A stretch of DNA of 64,000 nt. Origin: Callorhinchus milii (Eukaryota). The notes under the pieces are model-generated. The model did not search any database. It was not told the origin of the DNA and worked only from the letters and a program-made list of their open reading frames with translations. The translations under genes and the position numbers were made by a program. Position 1 is the first letter of the stretch, and each line of letters begins with the position of its first letter. The stretch is from the NCBI RefSeq assembly GCF_018977255.1, contig NW_024704772.1:186001-250000 (forward strand), written 5' to 3'. Shown here in pieces: positions 1,519 through 51,779 of this stretch.

Positions 1519-14241
<12,723 letters not shown>

Positions 14242-33805: not shown

Positions 33806-34026
33806 TCACTGGGAGACAGAAGGACCCAGCTCTCTGGCTGGCTGGCGATTCCTGCACTTCACAGCCAGTGTATAGGGACGAGGGGCTAAGGTGATTCGGT
33901 ACAACCCACGCAGGTCGGGAGGGGGCGCATGCGGAGGCCAGAGGAATGTGAAGCTCTGAAGGAGGCTGATGAAGAAGAGGAAGAGCTCCATGTTGGCCAC
34001 TCTCTCCCCTGGACATGCCCGCAGGC
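33806..34026 (-). CDS. CYP2 exon 9 (heme Cys)
   Basis: [19 protein letters not shown]. Confidence 0.92.
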
Positions 34027-37000
34027 CTGAAACACACAAGACATCACATGATACAGAAAGCTGTGTGTCTGTATGCACGTAAAGTGTACAGAACTGCATC
34101 AGCACCAACAGACAGAGACGGAGAGAGACACACATACATAGATACATGGATACATACATACACACACACGCACACAGACACATGCAGAGAGAAGACACAC
34201 TCACAGCCAGAGACACAGATCGAGCGAGATACATACACAGACGCATGTACACTGACAGAGCATCAGGCAGGCAGGCAGGCAGGCAGGCAAGCAGGCAGAC
34301 ATCTACAGCCACACACACTGATGGGGAGAGAGAGAGAGACACACACACACACGCGCAAAGATCTATTATGCGCACTGTCTTCATATCTGCTGTATAATGA
34401 CGCTCAGCATATAATGAAGGAGACTCACAAGGAATGAGATGGACTCACCCAGTGAGAAGGGGATGAAAGCTTCTGGTTTCACAAACTCTCCGTCTTCGTT
34501 CTGGAAGTTTCCCGGGTTGAAGTTGTTGGGGTCTTTCCAGGCGGCCTCATCGAACAGAGCTGAGGTCAGGTTCACCAGCATGATGGTGTCCTGGGGAACG
34601 AGGAGAAGCTACTGTTAGCACCGCGGGATCATAGTGATGTATATGTATATGTATATACGTATATATATATGTATATACACATTTATATATATATATGTAT
34701 ATACACATTTATATAGCGCCCTCCATGTAGGCTAATGTCTCGGAGCGGGTGCTTAGAGTGCTGTAGACCATGATAAGCTGCTTTATCTTATACTGAAAAG
34801 TAGAACCAGGGGACACGGCCTGCGATTGAAGGGGAGTAAATTCTCCTCTTTCACCAGCAACTTCTTAAGTTGTTATATAGGATGAGGCTCCTCAGGGACC
34901 TAGTCTGTTACTGACTGAATTAACCTTTTTCATTGTGTAGCTCCTGAAGCTGGTGTCCTGGATGGCAGCGTGAGCTGGTGTGAAGGGCACCACGTTCCCG
35001 AACCTTTGGATTTCGTGAATGACGGCACTGACGTAAGGCATTTTCACTCGGTCGTCCATGCAGGGCAACCGACACCAGCCGACCACCTGCTCGATCTCCT
35101 TCTGACACTTCTCTGCAGAGAGCGAGAGAGCGACAGAGACACGGACAGAGAGAACAAACCACACAATGAGAGGGATCAGAGCAAGGAGGAGGCCTTTGAT
35201 CACATCCGGAACCAATGGTAATTACCATCTGAAATGATCATCTCGATCAATAGATTTAGTTAATTATCACATAGTGGATCCTGTAGCTCAGTGGTTTGCG
35301 CACTCGCTTCGCAAGCGGGAGGACCTTTGCTTAGATTCTGGGCAGGACAGATCAGGGCGAAACTTTAGGCAAGTTTAATTACTCCACACACATGGCTCTG
35401 TTCACCTCGGAGTATATAGGAACCTGATTGTTAATCAATTGGCAGATCGCTTTTTCCAGGGATAAATTTTTTTAAAGAAACTAATAATAATTTTGTCACT
35501 CAATCCACGACTGTTTGTGGGACACTGCTGGGCGCAATTGGCTGCCACGTTTTGTGCACAAAATATATAGTCGATTCACTTTACAGTGTGTCCTGTGAAA
35601 TGCTTACAGATGTCTAGAAGATGTGATAAGGCTCTATATTAAATGCAAGGATTATTAATATATTATCTAGCTATTATTGACCTCGATAATTCTAGGATTT
35701 AATTCTCTCATTACAATTTTGATCATTGGACTGTCCAACGCCTTGGGACATCCTCTCAATGTGAATGGCGCTGTATAAATGTGATTGTATCTGTACATCA
35801 GAGGCTGCAGTTACCCTGTATATCGGGGTATGTCATCATGTATAATATTGCCCAGCGTAGCGTGGTGGCTGTGGTTTCAGTTCCAGCCACGAACAGATCA
35901 AAGACATTGTACACAAGGTTTCCCTCCGTCAAACAGGAATTGGGAGATTCTTGTTCCTGAAAAATGATAACGCAATATACATTGGTATTTGTCGATTTCA
36001 CGTCAGGAGTGTCTCAGGCCTCTTTACCCAGCTGGTTGCTTTATTCCTCCTTTTAAAGAAATATCTTGTGCCCCCTTTATCGATAGCCACAATCATAAAC
36101 CATTTCCAGCACAGATGGTCATTCAGCTGGACCTCGGTCCCCTCACACTGGAGCTCTCCACTCTCACCCCATCCCCTGCTCTCTCTCTCTCCCCCTCGTG
36201 TCTGTGCTGGTGCCATTGAGAGCACTACGCTCACCTTTTTCATTTCTAATAAATAGGCATCGATGAAATCCCGTGGTTTCTGCAGATCCAGCGATTCCCG
36301 GTGCTTTTTGATGAAATCCTGAATGATTGCTTCGATTTCTGCCTGGACTCGGAACATCTTCTGATGAGGCCCTGGGAAAGAGGAGAGAAAGGGGAGTGCC
36401 ATCGCCACCTGGGGAAAAACAGTGCATTATTCTGTGGGGAAAGCACAGGAGAAAGCTTTAGAGTAGATCTGTCAGTTCCAGAGAGAAAGGGAATAATGGC
36501 TGGAAGCTCGGCTGCTGCTGATGGTGGTGTTTGGGGGTGTGAGGAACACAAGCAGGCCTGAGTTTGCTGAGTCGAAGCTGGGAGGGAAGCAGGAAAGAAG
36601 GCTGTAGGAAGTCAGTATTAATAGGAAGGTGCGAGAGAGTGCGTGAGGATTTATTGATGAGCCTGAGGCAGAGGGAGAAAAGGTCACAGGTTCAGGGAGT
36701 GAAAGACAAGTTTAAGACAGACACCAGGAAGTATTTCTTTCCACTGAGGGGGATTAAACCCTTCAGTGAGGTTCCCAGAAAGTGTGGTGACAGTCAGCAT
36801 GCTGGGATTTTTGAGAGGTCAGGTGTCCTGAGTATTTGAAGGCGGTTCTTCCATTGGCGTATAAACAAAATAGTAATTTTCTGCTAACCTGGAACCAGAT
36901 TCCCGCTTGAAACTTCAAGCTCTTGTCGAAGAGTTCTGTCATTTGTATGAAGTTGGGGTCCGTGTAGTGGAAGCGCTCGCCAAAGACAATGGAGCAAATC

Positions 37001-39405
37001 ACATTGGACACAGCGTTGGTGATCTCAATGTCTGGGTTGAATGGTCGTCCTGGACAAGAGCAAAGAGCAAACCAACAAGTGACTGTCACTACGCTTTCTG
37101 GGAACTGAAGGGTTAATTCTTACAATCCATATCGTGGCTGCAGGCTCAGCAGCTACGTACAGTTAGGTGTAGTGACTCTGTATTTGGTAGGCGGACAGCG
37201 GCCAATTTGTGCAGAGCCTTGTTCCACAGATAGCAGTGAGGTAAATATCCAATATCAACCTGAACAGGGCACAGACTGGACAGGTTTAACATCTTGTCTG
37301 AGAGGTGGCAGGTGCAATGGTACAGTGTTGCCCCCTCCCCCCCCCCACCCCCAAGGAGGCGGTCAGCCTCGACTGTGGCTGATTACCCACTATATCGTCG
37401 GCTTCTGGTGACAGTTTGACAGACTGAGCCAGCCAGGCTGACACCCGACAGAAAGGGGGAACCTTGGATATTATTGAGGATTATATTGGAGATCTTCCAA
37501 TCAAAGAGGACTGTGTGACCACCTACCATCAGTTGATCTGAAGATCTCGATCAAATAGCGCACCTCTTCTAGAATCTTCTCCTCAAAGGCATTTTTACCC
37601 AATCCAAAGTTCCTCAAAATGGTCATCAAGAATCGCCGTTGTTGTTTCCAGGACTTCCCGTAGGGGGCGTTAATAATACCTGATAATGGTAACATTGTAC
37701 ACATGATAATCAGTCTCTGCTTACTTTTCTTTTCAGAGTGAAGAACAAGCAAGACACCCTTCACCCCACCTCAGGGATGTGCCTAGAAATTCCTCATCCA
37801 GCACACAGAATCAGACACAGTAAGAAAATAATAATAATAATAATCCTTGCAATTGATATGGTACCTTATCACTCCTTCGAGATGTTTCAAAGTGATTCAC
37901 AGGATATAATGTAAAGTAGATTATCTGTATATTTTGTGGGCGAAGCATAGCAGCCAATTGCGCACAGCAGTGTCCCACAAACAGTTGTGGATTGAGTGAC
38001 CAAATTATTATTTATTATTTTTTAAAACAAATTTTGAAGGGATTATTACCCTCAGAAAAACAAGACGCTAATTGACCATCCAAGTTCCTACTTACTACTA
38101 GCTAAACAGAGGCGTGTGCGTGCAGTAAGGAAACTTGCCTAACATTTCATCCAGCCTGGGAATTGAACCCAGGTCCTCTCGTTTGCGAGGCAAGTGCTCC
38201 AACCACTGAGCTACAGAAATCCACACTGAGCTACAGGATCCCAGGCGTTAAACACGTGGTTCGAGCAGAGGGACACGTGTGTGACCAGCCCTCTTTGTGA
38301 CGTTATGTAGAACAATGAAGTCTTCTCACCTTGTCCTTTGGAGAAAATATCAAACTGTGGTCGTCCGGCAAAGTTCGAGCCTTGATGGACAAGAGCCTCC
38401 TGGATCATCTGAAAGCCGTTCAGAGCCACCATGGGAATGTGTATCATGTAACACGTGAAAATGTTCCCATACTTCTTGGCAAGCTGATTGTAGTTTGGGA
38501 ATAGGAGGGTGGGGGGAAGGGGAGGGAGGGGAGAGAAAGAAAAGAAAGGATGAGCTTCGTCTGCAGTTAGCACGAGGTTGTCGCACGCATCAACAAACTT
38601 TTCCCTCTGGTGAGGGGTTTGGGGGAGTGGGAAATACAGAACAAGGAGCAGCATCTTAATATTAGAGCTAGGACATTTAACAGTGAAATCAGGAGGCAGT
38701 TTTTCACACACACAAAGGCTAGTGGGAATATGGAACTCTCTCTCTCTCTTCCTCCCCCAAAAGACTGTGGATTAATGCTGGATCCATTCACTTTATCCAG
38801 ACTGAAGTGGAAAGATGATTCACAGGTTAAGGGTATCAAGGGAAATGGGGCAAAGGCAGATAATTGAGGTTGAGGTACAGGTGATCTAACAGAATGGCGG
38901 AGACATCCTCCTGTTCCTATATTCCTATGGCAACAGATCAACTGTGAAGAAGTTTCGATAAAGGTAAACGCACTGGTCAGAGCTGCGCAGCTGTTTGTGG
39001 GCAGAGCAGTACTGTAATTTACACTTTCGTAAACAATCTCCTAACAGTGCCATTTTGCCATCTTCCTGGGGCAAGGTGTGTTTGGAGAAGCATTTGTGTG
39101 GAAGACTCCACACAAATGGGAATAAGTACATTTAAGAATTGATAGGATCACATAACACAAAACTACAATTGAAGGATCAATACAAATTTTTTTCTCTGTA
39201 CCTTCATTATTCCAAATTGTGGATACTTAAGAGCCTGCACAGTGAGGTTTTGGCTGATGGACCACAGGGACGGTCCGTGGGGCAGCTTGCTGTGGCTCTT
39301 CCTGGCCCGCATCACAGCCGTTACCACCACAAACACCATCACAAAGATCCCCCAGGTTTGCACATCCAGCCAGGTCTCCCTGCCCCACAAGCCTGACCAC
39401 TCCAT
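33806..39405 (-). CDS. Cytochrome P450 family 2 (CYP2D/2J/2X-like; subfamily not resolved), 9 exons, about 512 aa
   Basis: Exons 39405-39202, 38483-38330, 37679-37527, 37049-36889, 36408-36235, 35956-35815, 35112-34925, 34590-34449, 34026-33806. Sizes 204/154/153/161/174/142/188/142/221 follow the canonical CYP2 pattern. Motifs: WxxxR, AGTETT, EIQR, FNPGNF and heme FSLGLRACPG. Confidence 0.93.
34449..34590 (-). CDS. CYP2 exon 8
   Basis: [12 protein letters not shown]...AFIPFSL; 142 nt. Confidence 0.92.
34925..35112 (-). CDS. CYP2 exon 7 (K helix)
   Basis: [14 protein letters not shown]; 188 nt. Confidence 0.92.
35277..35665 (+). mobile_element. tRNA-derived SINE
   Basis: Same family; head to (TTA)n tail. 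Confidence 0.85.
35815..35956 (-). CDS. CYP2 exon 6 (I helix)
   Basis: [16 protein letters not shown]; 142 nt. Confidence 0.92.
36235..36408 (-). CDS. CYP2 exon 5
   Basis: PGPHQKMF...[14 protein letters not shown]. Confidence 0.92.
36889..37049 (-). CDS. CYP2 exon 4
   Basis: RPFNP...[19 protein letters not shown]; 161 nt. Confidence 0.92.
37527..37679 (-). CDS. CYP2 exon 3
   Basis: [17 protein letters not shown]...LRNFGLGK. Confidence 0.92.
37828..38240 (-). mobile_element. tRNA-derived SINE with a duplicated 5' tip
   Basis: Same family; CACTGAGCTACAG occurs twice. Confidence 0.85.
38330..38483 (-). CDS. CYP2 exon 2
   Basis: LAKKYGNIF...[14 protein letters not shown]. Confidence 0.9.
38580..38930 (+). 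mobile_element. CR1 LINE 3' fragment
   Basis: [18 protein letters not shown] remnant; related copy at 56900-57260 (-). Confidence 0.7.
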
Positions 39406-39573
39406 TTTCCACTCCAGCTTCCCTGAAAAATTCAGCCTTCTACACAATCTGTACAGCTGCTTCTCCAAACACACCTTGCCCCAGGAAGATGGCAAAATGG
39501 CACTGTTAGGAGATTGTTTACGAAAGTGTAAATTACAGTACTGCTCTGCCCACAAACAGCTGCGCAGCTCTGA
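38977..39573. repeat. Perfect 116-bp inverted duplication (38977-39092 / 39458-39573) enclosing CYP2 exon 1
   Basis: Base-by-base reverse-complement identity; also visible as the identical peptide [38 protein letters not shown] in opposite-strand ORFs. Confidence 0.95.
39202..39405 (-). CDS. CYP2 exon 1 (membrane anchor)
   Basis: MEWSGL...[22 protein letters not shown]; phase 0 donor. Confidence 0.8.
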
Positions 39574-40456
39574 GCAGTGGGAAGAGAGAGATCCATGAGG
39601 GAGGGACTCTTGACAGACAAGCAAACACTTGAAAAGCTCAGCTCTAATTTCACTTCCCACTGCGTGACTCACTTGCCATTGGCTATATTGTCCCGAGAGC
39701 AGCAGAGCTTTACAGCGAGGACTGGCAATCTGTTAAATAATAAGAGTTTTATGTGATAAATGTTCAGAAGAGAAAGGATAAGTGGGGAGAGAGCAAAGTC
39801 CTGTGAGTTTATAGCGCTGATAAAGTTCTAAAGTCTCAACTGTCCTCACAGAGAAATGCTGACAGCAGTGATTGACTTGTTTATGACTAAATGGGCAAAT
39901 GGGCAGTTTAGTGGGATGATTGTTGGCTAGGATAGCGGGATGTTACACCCTTCTCTAGTGCAACACAGCAGAAGGCCCATATCTCTGCAATTCAGCTCCA
40001 ATGGGAGCTCACATTTATCCAGTGCCCCTCATGTAGGTTAATAATAATAATCATTGGATTCGATATAGCGCCTTATCACATCGTTGAGCCATCTCAGAAT
40101 ATACTGTAAAGTGAATTGACTATGTTTTTGTGGGCGAAAGTTAAGTTACTGAGCCAGACGGGACCACAGTATTTCAAGGCATTGCTGGTGACAGCACAGC
40201 CTGGCTCATCGGCAGGACTCGGAGGGACAGACCAGTCATTCAGCAAACCTGGGCAAGCAACGGGAAGCTTAGAAGACAGTGCTGTCTCTCAATGGCAAGC
40301 TGTGTAGTTTTAGCTGATTAAACTCCATGGTGCAAAACCATGTGGTCTTGTAGGTGGCATCATTTCAATACTGAGTCCATGTCACATCCCATTGGAAATA
40401 AATCGACACAGCAAGCAGAACTTAGATCACTGAAGGAATTCAACAAAAGTTACTTC

Positions 40457-41542: not shown

Positions 41543-42740
41543 CTAGGGCTGGGACACCAGCTGGTGTGTAGTGGTGCAAAGAGACTGATGAGGTTCTGGT
41601 TTATGGCTGACCTGCTGGTTGGCCGCATGGTCATGACTCATGTCCTGAGTTTTCAGCAAAGCCCCGGGGTTGCTGCCTGCATCGTCATGGGAAAGAGATG
41701 TTGGAATGAAGCAATAATCACCAACTTGCTTGAGGACAATGGGTTTGGAGCCTTGTTGCAGAAGGACAACTGGGAACTCAGAGGGAGTGTCCTCAACATA
41801 CAGCGGCTTTTTCACTGGAGGTTCCTCAGGATGAGCTTGAAGCTTGGACGAGGGTTTTAGTTCAGTGACATAATCACTGAGCGCCTGGTGACTTGAGGTC
41901 TGGGAGTTCACACTTGGCCGCTGGTTGGCAGATTGTTTGTTTCCGAGTTCCTGGGGAGCAGTGTCTCCCGGTAAAGACAGCACGTAGCCCCTGCTATCGG
42001 GTGGGCAGAGTGCAGCGAGGCTTTGTCGCTGGGAGTTGGCAGAACGAGTAGGGAAGGCTTCGGGAACTGATTGGCTTGAAGACGGACAAAAAATATTGGA
42101 GTTCATGTTGTGAACATAGCCAGCCATGGTCCCAGGTAAGGGAACTAGGTTTGGCTTTGGGGGGCTTAGAACATAATTGTTCACCACAAAAGGTGGTTCA
42201 TCCGGAAAGGTTTTTCTGGAACAGGTCCTCTCCGCCTGGACATAAGAACCAGAGGTTTTGGGCACTAGCAGAGGACTGGAGGCCGTCTGTGCGAAGCTCA
42301 GGACATAATCGGAGACAGGAGGAGTAGCTTGGTTATTGCCTGATTCGAGCAGAGTCTCAGAGACCTCCTGTGGGATCTTCGTATACCACAGCCTGTCTTG
42401 GGCATCCTCAGACTGGCCATCAGCACCTTTGCCAGGCTCGGCCTTGGGTTTGGAGAAGAAATTAGGCAGGGACGAAGCTTGGCCGCTGTACAGATAGGGC
42501 CCGTCGTAGTCGGAGCGACAGGGAGGGTCTCTGTACCCAGTTAGCTCTCTCAGGTCAGTGTGGGGCAGCACGAGACTGGGCAAGGCTTCCGCAGGCACTG
42601 GCTGGCACCACTGGCTGCCACTGGTCAGCAGCGCAAACTGTTGGTAAGGTTGGTCTTGTCCGATAAGCTGCTCACTCGGCTCGGGAGAGGGTGTGACGTT
42701 CATCTGAGTCTCCTCACTGCTGGCCAACTTGTGCTTCTCA
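41543..42740 (-). CDS. CSF2RB: CSF2RB last exon (long Tyr-rich tail)
   Basis: 394-aa ORF containing DYDGPYL, several YVxx motifs and QVGDYCFIP. Confidence 0.9.
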
Positions 42741-45700
42741 CTGTTGGGAGAACGAGAACACTTTTGTCACAAAACGGCGCAGCAGAGGCAGGGAGAGAGT
42801 GCCGTCAGATAATGTTACCCACTGGCCAAGCTCTCAGCTGGGCATTTAGCACTACACTTTGTGTTCAGCAAGGTGAAGGTTGCCAGCTGAGACTCCCTCT
42901 CACTCACACCACAGCACGCGTGTGTGTCTGCGCATGTGTCTGTGTGTGTATCTGTGCTTGTGTGTCCGTGTGTATGTCTGTGTTTGTGTGTGTCTGTGTG
43001 TGTGTGTCTGTGTGCGTGTGTGTCGTCTGTGTGTGTGTGCATCGGGGGGATGTGCCAGGCTGGATACGGTAAAATAGCTTACCTAGGGATGATCTCAGGA
43101 CATGTAACGCAAGACTCGTCCAAGCTCATCTCATCCGTTATAGTGATGAGAGAAGTTGTGGGTCTTAACAGAGCTCCCTATAGAAACACACACACACACA
43201 CGTCAGCAAGCACTTGGCAAACTGTCTGCCTGTAAACTGCCGTTTGTTGCCAAGTTTATTATACAGAAACCCAGAATGAAATGAAGAATTTCACATTAAT
43301 CTGCACGTTAAATGGAGTCCTGCAGCTCAGTGCTTAGAGCCCTCGCCTCGCAAGCGAGAGGACCTGGGTTCGATTCCCGGGCAGGGCAAAATATTAGGTA
43401 AGTTTCCTTACTCCACACGCCTCTGTTTACCTAGCAGTAAATAGGAAGCCGGTTGCCAGTCGATGGTCGGATCACTTTTCTGGGGGTAATAATCCCTTCA
43501 AAAAATATATTAAAAATATTTGGTCACTCAATCCACGACTGTTTGTGGGACGCTGCTATGCTCAATTGGCTTCCGAGTTTCGCCCACAAAATATACAGTC
43601 AATTCACTTTACAGTATATTCTGTGAAGTGCTTTGAGACGTCTCGAAGAAGTGATAAGGCGCTATATCAAATGCAAGGATTATTTATTTATTTAAGAGTG
43701 AACTGGCGGGTGGAATTTCAGGTCTGTGAACTGTATGCCGTGTTTGTCTATAAATACAGTCTACACTGGACAGCGTTAAAGTGCTTTTGACATTATAGAC
43801 CAGTGATCAATGAGAGTTTAATAATGTAATATATAAATAGTCAGTCAGCCTCTGGAGAAGAGAGGAGCCATTACCTGGCCTTCGCTCTGGAACAGTTTGC
43901 TCTTTCCCGGATTCGGAATACTGTCCAACCAGGAGCGCTTTCTCCTGTGGGATGAAAATCAGAATGCTAGTTGTCATTTTATACAGATAGCAAGTGGGTT
44001 TCTGTTTAAATCTAAAGCCAGCACTTCAGACCAGCAACCGCAGGGAAATCCCCGTTTGTTTTGAGTTAGCGAGTCAACTGAAATAAGCTGAGGTTCACAG
44101 ACTGTACTGACAGGAATCTCTGACACGTGGAAACCTGTCCATCACCTACAGAGTTCTACGTATGTAGCCCCGGAAATCTCTCTCTCTCTCTCTCGCTGGA
44201 GGGACCCACTCTGATTACTTAATCCCAGAGAGTATTGGAGAGAGTATTGGAGGCAGCTTGGCAGGAGCCAAGGGGAGCCCAGAGTGTGCATTAGGATAAC
44301 TGCTGGAGTTTAACCAGCTAAAACCACACGTAGCTTGGCCATTGAGAGCAGTGTCTGACAAGTTATCCAGCTGAGACCATCCTATCCATTCAGGTTGTGG
44401 TTTGCAGGGTGGTCAGGAACTGATTGGGAAGAATCCCTGCCCCTGTGTAGGACAACGGACACCCGTGGGTGAGGCCTGCCTTACCTGCATATGAGCCAGC
44501 AGATCGGTGGAGTCATTAAGATGGCCAGTGAAATAAGTGTCCCAGTTATTAGAATGGTGATGTACTCCGAGTCTGCCACACAAAACACAGCCATTAAAGA
44601 GTTAAAGCTTTTCTCAGAACAAACATTGCCAACGTGAGGAGAGATTGACCCCGGCGCTCGTTTTGATCTCGGAGTCCGCTCCGTTCACGGACAAATCCCT
44701 CTCCCTTTCCCGTCTCCACACAATGGCGCTGAGTAAAGCGATGGACAACAACAACTTGGATTTATATAGTGCCCTCCACGCCAGACGGCGTCTCAGAGCA
44801 CTTTGAACAAGAGGCCTGTGGCCAGGACATCAAGACAGCTCCCCTGAAGCTGGGAGAAAAGTGTCCTTGGGACGTCCTCCCGATGTGAAAGGCGCTCTAT
44901 AAATGAAATCTTGTTGTTGTTGTTGTATGTAAACGCGTGCGTGTGTGTGAAGCTGATGAGGAATGTGTAAGTCTGTGTGTGTGTGGGTGCGTGTGAAGCT
45001 GGTGAGGAATGTGTGTGTGAGAGCACACAGTAATTTCTAGAATAGATCAGTCTCTCTCACTCACCTCCCTTAACGTTCAGGATGATTTCTCTGCTCCATT
45101 CGCTCCAGGGTCCATCATAACCGTCCTGCCCGGCCTTGGCCATCTTAGCCCTGACCCTGAAAGAATACCGGCTGCCAAGCTCCAGCGAGCTCTTCGGGAA
45201 CACGTAGAACCGGCTGCTTTGGGGAATGTCCACCATTTTCGGGTTCTGGCAACAAGGAAAGACAGCGATAGACTTGGATAGGGGCCATGGGAGGCTGGGA
45301 CACCATTCATACCACGGCCCGCGAGAGAGAGAAAGAGAGAGACACAGCAGAGGGCACAGTCTGGGACACCACATTGGGAATGGGAAACATCCGAGTGCCA
45401 GCATTCAGCCTCTAGTCTGGGCTCAGTGAGGGCTACAGCTCATTACCCGCAGGGTAACCAGTGAGTGGGAATGTGGAGTCCTGTAGCTCAGTGGTTAGAG
45501 CACTCGCTTTGCAAGCGAGAGACTAGAGTTCAATTCCAGGCAGAGGGCGAAACCTCGGGCAAGTTTCCTTACTCCACACAGAGCCTAATAATAATCCCTC
45601 CAAAACCAAAACAATAATAAATTGGTCATTTTCAATCTACGACTGTTTGTGGGACATTGCTGTGCGCAATTGGCTGCCGCGTTCGCCCACAAATATACAG

Positions 45701-48700
45701 TCAATTCACTTTACCTTTACAGTATATTCTGTGAAGCGCTTTGGGACGTCCTCCCGACGTGAAAAGCGCTATATCAAATGCAAGGATTATTATTATTATT
45801 ATTATTATTGCTGTGCGCAATTGGCTGCTGCGTTCGCCCACAAATATACAGTCAATTCACTTTACCTTTACAGTGTGTTCTGTGAAGCGCTTTGGGACGT
45901 CCTCCCGACGTGAAGAGCGCTATATCAAATGCAAGGATTATTATTATTATTATTATAATAACGTGAGCGGGAGAGGCCTGGCGGAGTGGAGGCTGTGTCG
46001 AGAGGCTGTTTTGAGGGGCTGAGAGTGGACAGGCCAAAGGGGCTTTCTCATCTGAACCACACACTCGCTCACTCACCCTCACACACACACTCGCTCACCC
46101 ACACTCACGCTCAACCTCACAAGCTCACTCACACACGCTCACTCACTCACACACTCACTCACACACTCGCTCACTCACACACTTGCTCATACACACTCGC
46201 TTACACACTTGCACATTACTGAAGCACGAAGCTCACAACTGAGCACTTACCAGCCCGGCCTGGTCTGCCTTCTCCTGGCGGATCTGGTACTGCAGTGCCT
46301 GTTCCGGTTTCTCTATGGCCTCCCATTTCAGTTTATACCCGTCTGAGCTCGGGGTCACCGTCAGGTTGAAGGGTTCAGCAGCTCTGACTACGAGCAAAAG
46401 GTACATCAGAACCACTGTGAAGCCCTCCGCTCTGGCACCGAAGTTTCAGTTTGGTTTGGAGACGCTTAAGCAACGGTGACGGGTTTCCGTGTGTGTCAGA
46501 CACCCGGATGGTCACGGTGACGGGTTTCCGTGTGTGTCAGACACCCGGATGGTCACAGTGACGGCTTTCCGTGTGTGTCAGACACGTGGCTGGTCACGGT
46601 GACGGGTTTCCGTGTGTGTCAGACACGTGGCTGGTCACGGTGACGGGTTTCCGTGTGTGTCAGACACGTGGCTGGTCACGGTGACGGGTTTCCGTGTGTG
46701 TCAGACACCCGGATGGTCATGGTGATGGATTTCTGCGTGTGTCAGACACTCGACTGACCAACAAAAATTGAGATGGGAACAAATGAACTCACTGGTTTTA
46801 CAGAGCCTGATCATGTGTGTTGGCTCCACTGCCTTCAGGACCACTGTGTAGTTGTCCGCAGTCTCCTGACCGTCCACAGGAAACTTACAGCCAAAGCTGG
46901 TGGGATGCGAGGTTTGCTGCTGTGTGACAGTAGGTGAGCACTCGCTCAGCCTGGGAAACATTACACAAAACAACATTCCAGTCAACAAAAGCCACCGTCA
47001 AACTGGCTTTACTGCATGTTAGCAGCTTCTCCCACCCACTTCTTTGACAAATGCACTTATATAATAATAATCCTTGCATTTGATACAATGCCTTATCACA
47101 TTGTGAAAACATCTTAAAACGCTTCACAGGATACACTGTAAATAGAGTGACTATGCATTTGGTGGGCGAAAATACACTTATGCAATCACACGCCCTGCTT
47201 TTCCCATTTGTCAGCCTGGCTCAGCCACTCACACCCCGGTCTTGGGGTCAGAGGATGTGTGTTCACGGTCCCACACTGGGAGTCCTGTGGCTCAGTGGTT
47301 AGAGCACTCGCTTTGCAAGCGAGAGACCTGAGTTCAATTCCAGGCAGAGGGAAACCTTGGGCAAGTTTCCTTACTCCACACAGAGCCTAATAATAATCCC
47401 TCCAAAAACCAAAAACAATAATAAATTGGTCATTTTCAATCTACGACTGTTTGTGGGACATTGCTGTGCGCAATTGGCTGCCGCGTTCGCCCACAAATAT
47501 ACAGTCAATTCACTTTACAGTGTGTTCTGTGAAGCGCTTTGGGACGTCCTCTCCCGACGTGAAAAGCGCTATATCAAATGCAAGGATTATTATTATTATT
47601 ATTATTATTTGAGCTCACAGTCTAGGCTGACACTAAGGCAGGGCTGGGGGGGGTGGGCTGTCCTTCAGATGAAGAGAGTTTCTCTCTCAAGTCTTAGCTA
47701 ACAATCCCCCCAGATAACATCATTGTACAAATGCAAGGATTATTATTATTATGACTACTATTATTATTGTGCACAATGGCTGCTGCGTTTTCCCACAACT
47801 GCCCAATATAGCGCCCCTCACGCAGGGTAACGCTCTGGGACGCCAGTGCTCAGTGATTTACAGTAAATTTTGTGAAGCGCTTTGCGACGTCCTCCTGAGG
47901 TACAAAGCACTGTACCCCACGGAGGGATCTGATGATGTAGTGCCTCGCGGTGCTGTTGCCCTGGACTCACATGTTGTTGGCTTTGGCGTAGTGCAGCTTA
48001 AACTCCACCTGGCCAAGTGACTGGCTGGGCACCTCCCAGGTACAACCCATCTCTGCCACTCCATCGTACTCACACTGCAGGTTCTTGGGCAGGACATCAG
48101 CAGGTTCTGGTGAGGGAGGCCGCAGGTATTACACAGGGAATAGCATGTAACATGTCCCGACTTCTTTCCAATACGCCTGACCCCATCCCAACATGCCTGA
48201 CCCCATCCCAACACGCCCCACCACGCCTGTCGTGCTAATTGGTGTGTTACCGGTTTTAGGTCCTGTTGTCTCAGGGGTGACGTTCCATCTGATCTCTGTG
48301 CTCCACTGGCTCCAGTACCCTGTGTACTGGCCGCTAGCCTGGGGTCTGGCTCGTACCCGTGCCCGATGCTCTCCCGGCTTTGCCAGCCTCCGGCTGATCA
48401 CTAAGTGTGTCCTGTTCTCCAGCACCAGCTCACTCACAGCATCCTGCACACACCACGATCACAACAACAATAATAATCCTGGCATTTGACACAGCGCCTT
48501 ATCACATTGTCGAGGCATCTCAAAGTGCTTCACAGGATATACTGTAATAATAATAATAATAATAATAATAATCCTTGCATTTGATATAGCGCTTTTCACG
48601 TCGGGAGGACGTCCCAAAGCGCTTCACAGAACACACTGTAAAGTGAATTGACTGTATATTTGTGGGCGAACGCGGCAGCCAATTGCGCACAGCAATGTCC

Positions 48701-50640
48701 CACAAACAGTCGTAGATTGAAAATGACCAATTTATTATTGTTTTGGTTTTGGAGGGATTATTATTAGGCTCTGTGTGGAGTAAGGAAACTTGCCCAAGGT
48801 TTCGCCCTCTGCCTGGAATTGAACTCAGGTCTCTCGCTTGCAAAGCGAGTGCTCTAACCACTGAGCTACAGGACTCCACTGTAAAATATAGTGACTGTAT
48901 GTTTTGTGTTGTCAGTGTCAATGTGACACGGTGAGGTTAGTGTTAGTGTGACACAGTGAGGATAGTGACTAATATTGATGTCAGTGTTACACACCTGCCA
49001 ACACTGCTGGTGGCTGCAGTGATCAACCTGGTATTGGAGGTGGCCATGGAGCCGGCTGCCACTGGCCTCACTGTACACTGTTTGCCAGGTCAGATGGTAG
49101 TCACCGGTCATCATGTGGCTGATGCTCAGGTTGGCTGGAGGCCGGGGTCTGACTGAACACAAACAATACGAATAAGTTCCCAACAAATAGCAACAAATCC
49201 CAATAAAGTAGTTGCTGCATTTACCTCCACATACACCGTACCCTCTCCAAACACACATACGCACTCACATATACACACACACTCTCACAAACATACACAT
49301 AAACACACACTCAAACATACACACACACAGACACATACATACACACAAACATACATGCAGATTCACAAACATACACCTCACAAACATACACACAGACATA
49401 CACAATGCCCTCTCCACACACACACGGACTCTTCCCCCCCCCCACACACACAGGAGCACACTTACTGTTGTCCATCAGGCTGGTGGTTTGTCTGACATTG
49501 AGTGGGGTGACTGGTTTGAAGGTGAACTTGTAGACTAAACTGGCATAAAAAGATTTTCTCCAGATTGTGCAGTTCCAGCTGATGAGGGAGTCGGACTGGT
49601 TCACCTGCACCGCATCACATTGCTGCTCCGGCTCACTAACGTAATAAATGAAACGTTTTACAAAATAATAATAATTTGGTTTAAGCACTATATAAATGTA
49701 ATTTTGTTGTTGTGTTGGTCATTCATTCCACGTCTTTGAGACATCTCAAAGCGCTTCATAGAATATACCGTAAAGTAGTAATAATAATAATCCTTGCATT
49801 TGATATATTGCTTTTCACGTCTTCTAGACGTCTCAAAGCGCTTCACAGAATAGACTGTAAAGTGAATTGACTGTATATTTGTGGGTGAAATTGTAATGAC
49901 AGTGTATTTTGTGGGCGAAACGCGGCAGCCAATTGCGCACAGCAGCTTCCCACAAACAGGCATGGATTGAGGGACCAAGTTATTATTTTTTTTAAATGTT
50001 ATTTTAAAATGCTTTGGGATGTCTGAAGGTGACAAGGTGCTGTAACAATGCTGGTTCTCTCTATTCACCTGCTTAAGCTGTCCACTTTCTGATAGAAGAG
50101 CCTCATGGGTATGTGGGGCTTCACTGAGATGTCCTCCGTCCAGTGGCAATCGATCCTGGTGGCGTAGTCATTGTAACACTGCAGCTCGTTCACTGTCAGG
50201 AGAGAGAGAGAAAACCAGAGTCCGTCAGGTCAAGTCAGGTCAGTGCAAGACACCCCCACCCCTCACTCACCCACCCCATCCCCACTCAGCCCCCTCAATC
50301 CCCCTCTCGCCTCCAATCGCACTCCCCCACCTATTCATGTTACTCTTTTACTGTCCGTCAGTATGTCTCTGTGTCTCACCCTTTCTCTCTCTCTCTCTCT
50401 CTCTGTGTCTCTCTCAATCTCTCTCTCTCTCGCTCTGTTTCTCTCCCCCCTCTCTCTCTACCTCTCTCTTTCTCTCTCTCTCTCTCTCTTTCTCTCTCCC
50501 CTCTCTGGCTGTGGCCAGGATGACCAGCGGGGACAGGGTTGAGGACGGAGAGAAGGGGCTTTACCTTTAGAAGAGCAGACGGTGACAAGAAGCCAGAGCA
50601 GCACCAGACGGAGAAAGCTGGTCCTTCCTGCCGGCAACAT
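41543..50640 (-). CDS. CSF2RB: Cytokine receptor common beta chain (CD131), 13 coding exons, about 927 aa
   Basis: Exons 50640-50565, 50192-50069, 49635-49466, 49152-48995, 48443-48251, 48106-47971, 46950-46793, 46387-46251, 45245-45065, 44572-44485, 43944-43875, 43177-43083, 42740-41543. Two tandem cytokine-receptor modules (LQCYNDY..WSQWS; PKNLQC..WSEWS), TM, Box1 [22 protein letters not shown] and [11 protein letters not shown]. Confidence 0.93.
43083..43177 (-). CDS. CSF2RB: CSF2RB cytoplasmic exon
   Basis: Open 95-nt exon, phase 0-2, which bridges the Box1 exon to the last exon. Confidence 0.65.
43314..43692 (+). mobile_element. tRNA-derived SINE
   Basis: GGAGTCCTG..CTCGC-CTCGCAA-GCGAG (Ala-type anticodon arm)..GGTTCGATTCCC. 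Confidence 0.88.
43875..43944 (-). CDS. CSF2RB: CSF2RB Box1 exon
   Basis: [19 protein letters not shown]. Confidence 0.9.
44485..44572 (-). CDS. CSF2RB: CSF2RB transmembrane exon
   Basis: [26 protein letters not shown]. Confidence 0.82.
45065..45245 (-). CDS. CSF2RB: CSF2RB D4 exon b
   Basis: [13 protein letters not shown]...[10 protein letters not shown]. Confidence 0.9.
45475..45960 (+). mobile_element. Young SINE subfamily copy with a tandemly duplicated 3' half
   Basis: Diagnostic internal deletion (CACAGAGCCTAATAATAATCCCTCC); 3' body repeated at about 45810-45960. Confidence 0.88.
46251..46387 (-). CDS. CSF2RB: CSF2RB D4 exon a
   Basis: [18 protein letters not shown]. Confidence 0.88.
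46473..46759. repeat. 41-bp minisatellite, 7 units
   Basis: Unit ACGGTGACGGGTTTCCGTGTGTGTCAGACACCCGGATGGTC starting at 46473, 46514, 46555, 46596, 46637, 46678 and 46719. Confidence 0.92.
46793..46950 (-). CDS. CSF2RB: CSF2RB D3 exon b
   Basis: ECSPTV...GCKFPV...YTVVLK; 158 nt. Confidence 0.88.
47279..47609 (+). mobile_element. Young SINE subfamily copy
   Basis: Near-identical to the copies at 45475 and 48545. Confidence 0.88.
47971..48106 (-). CDS. CSF2RB: CSF2RB D3 exon a
   Basis: [20 protein letters not shown]; 136 nt. Confidence 0.9.
48251..48443 (-). CDS. CSF2RB: CSF2RB D2 exon b
   Basis: ARVRARP...YTGYWSQWS. Confidence 0.9.
48545..48877 (-). mobile_element. Young SINE subfamily copy nested in an older SINE, with a 7-bp TSD
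   Basis: ACTGTAA at 48541-48547 and 48878-48884. Confidence 0.88.
48995..49152 (-). CDS. CSF2RB: CSF2RB D2 exon a
   Basis: [11 protein letters not shown]...YHLTW...LQYQV; 158 nt. Confidence 0.9.
49466..49635 (-). CDS. CSF2RB: CSF2RB D1 exon b
   Basis: EPEQQC...WNCTI...YKFTFKP. Confidence 0.85.
50069..50192 (-). CDS. CSF2RB: CSF2RB D1 exon a
   Basis: [16 protein letters not shown]; 124 nt. Confidence 0.9.
50565..50640 (-). CDS. CSF2RB: CSF2RB signal-peptide exon
   Basis: CACC ATG context; [25 protein letters not shown]; 76 nt. Confidence 0.85.
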
Positions 50641-50799: not shown

Positions 50800-51202
50800 A
50801 ACCCCAGGCAAGTTTCCTTACTCCACACACACGCCTTTGTTTACCAGCAGTGAGTAGGAACCCGCGTGTTAGTAGATTGGTGGCTCAAATTTACGGGAAT
50901 AATATAATCCCTTCAAAAAATAAATAATAATTTGGTCACTCAACCCATGACTGTTTGTGAGACATTGCTGTGCGCAGTTGGCTGCTGCAAATAATAGTCA
51001 CTCCACTTTACAGTACATAAAAAAACAATAATAAATTGGTCATTTTCAATCTACGACTGTTTGTGGGACATTGCTGTGCGCAATTGGCTGCCGCGTTCGC
51101 CCACAAATATACAGTCAATTCACTTTACAGTGTGTTCTGTGAAGCGCTTTGGGACGTCCTCCCGACGTGAAAAGCGCTACATCAAATGCAAGGATTATTA
51201 TT
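50800..51202 (+). mobile_element. Older SINE body followed by a 5'-truncated young-subfamily copy (51020-51202)
   Basis: Same diagnostic sequence AATAAATTGGTCATTTTCAATCTACGAC. Confidence 0.8.
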
Positions 51203-51779
51203 TTTGTAAGCCCCTACTCCCTGCAAATAACTCGCAAAAGCCCTTCACCTAGTCTCTGTCTCTCTCTCTCTCTCTGTCTGACTCCCAACTTCCTTGTGTT
51301 GCTGCTCCTCTTCTCCAGTTTTATCTCTTGTTTGACGTCAATCCTCCCCCATAAATCCCACCCTGAATTCACTGCAAGACAGTCATCTTTCTCTTAAATT
51401 CGGAAACTTGGCAAATTGAAGCTTGCAAAACATCGATCAAAACATGTTGCCCCATCGTACCTTCTGTGTAACTAAAGGGAAATGACTGGTGTGTCCTGAT
51501 CGACAGATACCAGGTTTCTAATCTGGCTCCATCTCTGATTGTGGATGTCCATCTGTTATTTGCTGTCAGAAGATAACAAGACACTTCCCTTACGCTCAAC
51601 TCTATCTCTTGCTCACTCTCTCGCTCTTGTGGATTATAAGTCTCCTCTGTGAGATTTACAGCATCTCTCACACAGGAAAAACGCTTCAAAGTGCCAGAGA
51701 GAATAGAGGGGTGTAAGGGGAAGGCTGGGGAGAGGGGCTTAGGAGGGATGGGGGCCCTCCTAACACAGAGAGTATAGAG

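Follow-up and report, generated by a model that had tools for sequence, protein, structure and literature searches.

An inverted repeat in intron 1 of a Callorhinchus milii CYP2 gene is probably the tail of a repair patch that begins with the 5' end of a dynein intron

The movement of intron sequence between genes is a long-open question. Intron transposition at pre-existing positions is described for fungi (Mycosphaerella) and a tunicate (Oikopleura) in the accessible part of a review (PMC3443670), and two laboratory cases in yeast appear in the available text of a second paper (PMC11146597). As far as its accessible text describes, a human intron-gain survey (PMC12124190) was not built to detect donor-to-donor patches. 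In the literature that was searched, with subscription journals mostly outside its coverage, no vertebrate donor-to-donor intron transfer was found. Regarding repair, complex MMB-TIs are reported as germline variants, 33 and 26 of them in two people (available part of PMC8421209), and snap-back SD-MMEJ, in the accessible portion of its description (PMC5728401), leaves a hairpin-primed synthesis pattern that matches the one reported below. Here, we describe a CYP2-family gene of Callorhinchus milii in which the donor region of an intron from a different gene seems to have taken the place of a working vertebrate splice donor, at a divergence (about 3%) recent enough for the source, the junctions and the order of events to be read.

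The gene is located on the minus strand (33806-39405) of the window, which is the whole 64-kb stretch of DNA analysed (G000:C31:186001-250000). It is an intact nine-exon CYP2-family gene encoding 512 amino acids (UniRef name CYP2AA1-like, Callorhinchus milii), all nine exons of which were mapped inside the window, and its protein scored 431 bits against Pfam p450. Coding exon 1 (39202-39405, minus strand) contains 68 codons, ends with AAG in phase 0 and is followed by a donor GT at 39201. Transcripts were examined in four RNA-like runs from two studies; the RNA label is a guess with which the spliced joints agree, and these runs, like the DNA-like runs used below, come from one species. The joint between exons 1 and 2 (39202/38483) was present in 4/4 RNA-like runs, and all eight introns were spliced in run X5. 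An unbroken contig extended from 39202 to 39543 in X6, and mRNA contigs reached 39484 in X8 and X11. From the X6 contig, it is likely that at least 86 nt of the upstream repeat arm belong to the 5' UTR. A candidate 5' UTR intron, extending from near 39672 (donor-like) to 39423 (acceptor-like), was rejected, as contigs crossed 39423 unbroken in X6, X8 and X11. Ahead of the ATG, the CYP2 frame stays open through a further 109 codons (39406-39732, minus strand), with no Met and probably by chance.

Two neighbouring genes were observed on the same strand of the window. The one at about 41544-47000 has a WSEWS motif and is, we assume, class I cytokine receptor-like; downstream of this gene, RNA-like contigs extend as far as 40431, which leaves about 850 nt to the 5' end of CYP2, and its introns contain inverted SINE pairs (99%) lying 1-3 kb apart. 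The other, at about 3000-14000, presumably encodes a type II transmembrane serine protease, matriptase-2-like by its motifs.

The original prediction was that of a perfect 116-bp inverted duplication clamping CYP2 coding exon 1, and the duplication itself was confirmed. Positions 38977-39092 are the exact reverse complement of 39458-39573 (116/116), the loop between them measures 365 nt, and the upstream arm starts 53 nt from the ATG at 39405, as had been claimed. The repeat is in fact longer than first noted, with arms of 122 bp (38971-39092 for the intronic arm and 39458-39579 for the upstream, promoter-proximal one, both given for the minus strand) and a single mismatch at 39574. Chance was excluded for this match (E 2.8e-57 in the 64-kb window). 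When the 991.5-Mb genome was searched with the arm, only two matches were obtained; such a search can skip very common words, yet it returned both copies. With two copies, the arms are not a high-copy repeat or a MITE. In a survey of 1.06 Mb (100 stretches of 10 kb plus the window), seven perfect inverted pairs of at least 40 bp with a spacer of up to 1 kb were detected, among which only the CYP2 pair was at least 100 bp long; five of the seven were multi-copy repeats and one, by its look, was a long-armed element. A low-copy MITE-like element with long near-perfect inverted ends was observed at L081:94-849 (G000:C1:50140094-50140849).

In order to establish whether both copies are present in animals, contigs from four DNA-like runs (four samples of one study) were used. 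These are 31-mer contigs, which cannot span 122-bp arms and carry no information on how the loop is oriented. Over 38971-39092, a 122-nt contig without a single difference was obtained in 4/4 runs, at depths of 12.4, 18.4, 24.6 and 20.7 as against 6.3, 6.8, 12.8 and 7.4 for the exon, that is, at roughly double depth. The unique flanking contigs ended 30 nt inside the repeat at both outer ends (39000 and 39550), and position 38970 carried no branch. Thus, contig depth and contig limits indicated that both repeat copies exist, and an assembly chimera, an objection foreseen for the intronic copy, was ruled out by their support in 4/4 runs. No empty or alternative allele was seen in the same 4/4 runs. 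Judging from the contig limits and from the fact that 39574 is not listed as a variant, the arms of those animals are likely to be identical at 122/122 positions. The mismatch at 39574 is likely absent from these four other samples and would be a private variant or an assembly error.

When the first 98 nt of intron 1 (39104-39201, minus strand) were compared with the genome, one other match was found, on another scaffold (C3:76377693-76377790). There, the sequence is the 5' end of a dynein intron, of which the CYP2 segment appears to be a copy (G000:C3:76377789-76377693, minus strand). The match begins at the GT donor in both genes, in sense, and pairs the first 98 nt of the CYP2 intron with the first 97 nt of the dynein intron. 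It amounts to 96/99 when one common G of the exons is included, this being the only base of exon sequence visibly common to both genes. One of the 3 differences in 99 may be polymorphic (39137). Past the first 98 nt, the comparison of CYP2 intron 1 with the dynein intron gave no significant match: the remainder (38484-38970, minus strand) carries its own acceptor, its 3' end is single-copy by genome search, and it contains a repeat fragment at about 38650-38930 that we take to be CR1.

The DNA ahead of the match at C3 proved to be an axonemal dynein heavy-chain exon of 75 codons (human DNAH5 1829-1903, E 3e-30). Its last residue corresponds to 2009 of PDB chain 9fqr_I3, and the following dynein exon picks up at 2010. 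The intron between them is GT..AG, in phase 0 and 1554 nt long. A candidate reading of the C3 site as a CYP2 retrocopy in neutral DNA was dropped on account of this exon. Chain 9fqr_I3 is listed as CFAP57 and aligns as a 4730-aa dynein heavy chain, so that its label looks misassigned. The C3 exon scored 119.8 bits against the 4730-aa chain and 106.2 bits against human DNAH5, and two paralogues showed the reverse preference. On this one exon and on the length of the DNAH8 protein, which fits the 4730-aa chain, the C3 gene is likely to be DNAH8. In mammals, DNAH8 is described as testis-specific in the available part of PMC7256033. No repeat that crosses the C3 junction turned up when the flanking C3 sequences were used as queries. 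The C3 copy may be common to other animals, as an 89-nt contig over 39104-39192 in 3/4 DNA-like runs suggests.

Both intron positions are ancestral. A GT donor was found at the same codon in 3/3 dynein paralogues, and 10/10 exon-2 matches among CYP2 paralogues start after AG at the same codon. Since the CYP2 position is shared by these 10/10 matches, no new intron position was created. The introns of the CYP2 paralogues, compared for an ancestral donor, were too diverged to show one.

The last 6-9 nt of the copied segment (39104-39112, minus strand) belong to a young tRNA-derived SINE, of which they are the 5' end. In the dynein intron this SINE is complete, in sense, with an (ATT)7 tail, and lies downstream of the matching piece; on the CYP2 side only these 6-9 nt of its head are found, with no SINE body, tail or target duplication. 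The family is abundant, with 6156 genome copies sharing an identical 49-nt head in a pattern search. Four young copies are present in the window (45473-45956, 47279-47617, 48552-48879 and 51021-51205), one of them with a tandemly doubled 3' half, and the dynein gene has a second young copy in one of its later introns (L149, G000:C3 about 76370500-76370830). In some copies (L035, L037 and window 38220-38233), part of the 5' head is repeated immediately upstream, as though the reverse transcriptase had started anew at the 5' end.

Read along the gene strand, intron 1 begins with the 98 nt (39201-39104). Then come a single T, 12 nt copied in reverse from 39107-39118, and the 122-nt reverse copy of the upstream arm. 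The 12-nt copy (39102-39091) and its template (39118-39107) fold into a perfect snap-back hairpin of 12 bp whose loop is 4 nt long (39091-39118, minus strand), and the single untemplated T at 39103 sits at this loop. Only two such 12-bp hairpins were found in the 64-kb window. Both the 12-nt and the 122-nt copy follow a single template strand in co-linear order, with TG (a 2-nt microhomology) as their overlap and a skip of 341 nt between them on the template; this microhomology concerns the internal switch only, the outer junctions being of the kind that would be read from an ancestral allele. The tract would thus draw on several templates, namely the dynein intron, the local hairpin and the upstream arm. 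On this anatomy, the inverted repeat is likely a tolerated scar of template-switch repair, and its 122-bp inverted copy probably forms the tail of an error-prone repair patch in CYP2 intron 1. Taken alone, the inverted repeat is an ordinary tolerated scar; its origin would be explained by the snap-back hairpin together with the start of the intron taken from dynein, neither of which had been noted at first. The same appearance would result from a long fold-back and a subsequent internal deletion.

Perfect identity of the arms had been taken to imply a very recent origin or ongoing gene conversion. A recent origin was supported; gene conversion is unneeded, as 0-1 differences in 122 bp permit up to 3-4.5% divergence.

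To assess the direction of transfer, several lines were considered. First, a 5-nt target-site-like duplication flanks the SINE alone at C3. Duplications of at least 5 nt were present in 10/30 true SINE flank pairs and in 36/930 mismatched pairs; the C3 duplication comprises 2 bases beyond the ATT tail and requires a SINE 5' end that includes TGT, as seen in 12/30 copies. Second, the shared piece has 28.6% GC, a value as low as this being found in 2.3% of windows near CYP2 versus 9.8% near dynein, and the other seven CYP2 intron starts have 41-60% GC; the GC argument is weak. Third, the repair scar sits at CYP2. The probable identity of the C3 gene as DNAH8, testis-specific in mammals, was weighed alongside. 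Each line is modest, and together they favour a transfer from dynein to CYP2. Under the opposite transfer, CYP2 would have been the original home of both the piece and a full SINE; these would have been retroposed onto the dynein donor, and the SINE would later have been lost from CYP2 to leave the scar. Such a course would explain the complete tailed SINE at C3 as a retroposition product, as well as the 6-9-nt remnant at CYP2; it has nonetheless a slim chance of being right, since the duplication at C3 flanks the SINE alone, GC suits dynein better, at least two events are required and an excised-intron template is still implied.

For the transfer from dynein to CYP2, we favour a cDNA made from the excised dynein intron as the patch, fitted at CYP2 donor to donor, with the break then closed by snap-back and inverted copying. 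We give this reading a probability of about 0.55. A sense SINE provides a handle for LINE reverse transcriptase, as is established in retroposon biology. The enzyme would have engaged the sense SINE inside the dynein intron RNA and would have proceeded to the 5' end of the intron; with DNAH8 as the gene, male germ cells would be the likely setting. As an excised intron begins at GT by nature, the end of its cDNA has a built-in microhomology to any donor. This end may have paired with the CYP2 donor through the common G|GT(A), so that the former intron start was replaced. Copying would have halted, or a later break would have fallen, 6-9 nt into the SINE head, and a snap-back plus one further switch would have rejoined CYP2 intron 1, the whole sequence being one event or two. 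Because no SINE body, tail or target duplication is left at CYP2, reverse transcription is inferred from the boundaries alone. It should be noted that this is a single case from a wide scan, and that the share of chance is not negligible.

The exact exon-intron joint in both genes is also what spliceosomal reverse splicing predicts, with no need for microhomology. In this scheme, the dynein intron lariat would have been joined to CYP2 exon 1 RNA, and the chimera would have been reverse-transcribed, recombined through exon 1 and broken off after 98 nt, with snap-back closure. According to the accessible part of the review (PMC3443670), most suspected reverse-splicing events concern pre-existing intron positions, and catalytic activity of the lariat spliceosome after splicing is reported in the available text of PMC11146597. 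However, the 3' part of the dynein intron and its acceptor stayed behind, co-expression of CYP2 and dynein in germ cells is required, and in the same portion of the review (PMC3443670) reverse splicing is described as shown only under non-physiological conditions and into the original site. We therefore hold reverse splicing to be doubtful, with a small but appreciable probability.

Template switching at the DNA level could likewise have produced the three segments, which are readable as one continuous synthesis. Here, a break at the CYP2 donor would have been primed on the dynein locus by GGT(A), and the register of the two donors would be a coincidence helped by selection for a splice site. 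Multi-template microhomology insertions are common germline variants in the available part of PMC8421209, and the divergence of the piece (3/99) did not differ significantly from that of the arms (0-1/122; Fisher p 0.09-0.33). Two coincidences weigh against this course, of about 2% on the template side and of a few percent for the CYP2 break, giving about 1 in 1000 or less, a figure that is uncorrected for the breadth of the scan. Extrapolation from 1.0 Mb gives about 4.3 million GGTA sites genome-wide, and the genome contains roughly 0.1 million such donors. DNA-only switching is thus rather unlikely.

A pre-mRNA stem of 116 bp, able to control splicing, had also been predicted from the repeat. 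On the evidence of one RNA-like contig, both arms occur in one transcript and at least 86 bp can pair, which upholds the stem in part. The folding of the arms was strongly favoured (z -20; -165 kcal/mol for the 86-bp stem), the CYP2 donor being 109 nt from the stem. The predicted unpairing with and without the intronic arm was 0.12 and 0.11 for the donor, and 0.39 in both cases for the ATG. The splicing clamp was not supported: exon 1 joins exon 2 in 4/4 RNA-like runs, and the predicted access to the donor is unaltered by the stem. No sense A>G change in the arms was listed in the RNA-like contigs, which drop rare variants, and both variants listed in exon 1 of the RNA-like runs also occur in DNA runs. 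No Rfam family was detected in the region, the best intronic small-RNA match reaching 16 bits against a 65-bit threshold.

One X5 RNA-like contig runs from exon 1 through the arm into the opposite strand. It was rejected as proof of an inversion since it carries spliced exon 2, which is impossible in cis from an inverted allele; we read its opposite-strand joint as a 31-mer collapse of the arms. This contig, the perfect stem of at least 86 bp and the lack of an alternative allele in 4/4 DNA-like runs are what could be cited for arms retained by selection, whether as an RNA clamp, as a substrate for editing or siRNA, or as an invertible on/off switch. Splicing is normal, however, with the same donor access with and without the arm, the X5 contig is accounted for by the collapse, and neither a sense A>G change (a weak point) nor an Rfam family was found. 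Selection for such a function is very improbable, and the RNA stem is likely tolerated rather than a selected switch.

These observations suggest that excised SINE-bearing introns can act as germline repair templates. The CYP2 patch is likely a rare footprint of spliced-out intron RNA copied back into a vertebrate genome. If reverse splicing were true, the locus would instead be a natural vertebrate product of it, an aborted intron transposition still 97% identical to its source, and the inverted repeat would mark the point at which the copy broke off.

Compared with known systems, the scar resembles MMB-TI (PMC8421209) and SD-MMEJ (PMC5728401), as described in the available parts of these papers, by the inverted copy of nearby sequence, the several templates, the 2-nt microhomology at the internal switch, the hairpin priming and the germline setting. 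It differs from the cases in those same parts in that one of its templates lies far away in the genome, with a splice donor as the starting point in both genes, and in that the template of the long arm is 365 nt away. LINE/SINE 5' transductions and chimeric retrocopies, in the accessible part of PMC13174262, likewise fuse host sequence, in sense, with a retroelement at its 5' end, the source element being intronic. The chimeras presented there contain exons ending at donors, whereas the CYP2 case is an intron start beginning at a donor; and, unlike SINE 5' transduction by TPRT, the CYP2 daughter has 6-9 nt of the element and neither tail nor target duplication. Finally, as in the intron transposition described in the available part of PMC3443670, foreign intron sequence is found in sense, exactly from the 5' splice site and at a pre-existing position. 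In contrast to that process, only the first 98 of 1554 nt moved at CYP2, the branch point and acceptor being native, the host is a jawed vertebrate and a repair scar follows. Since the acceptor end was unmoved and no intron was gained, the CYP2 patch stands outside the class of intron transposition.
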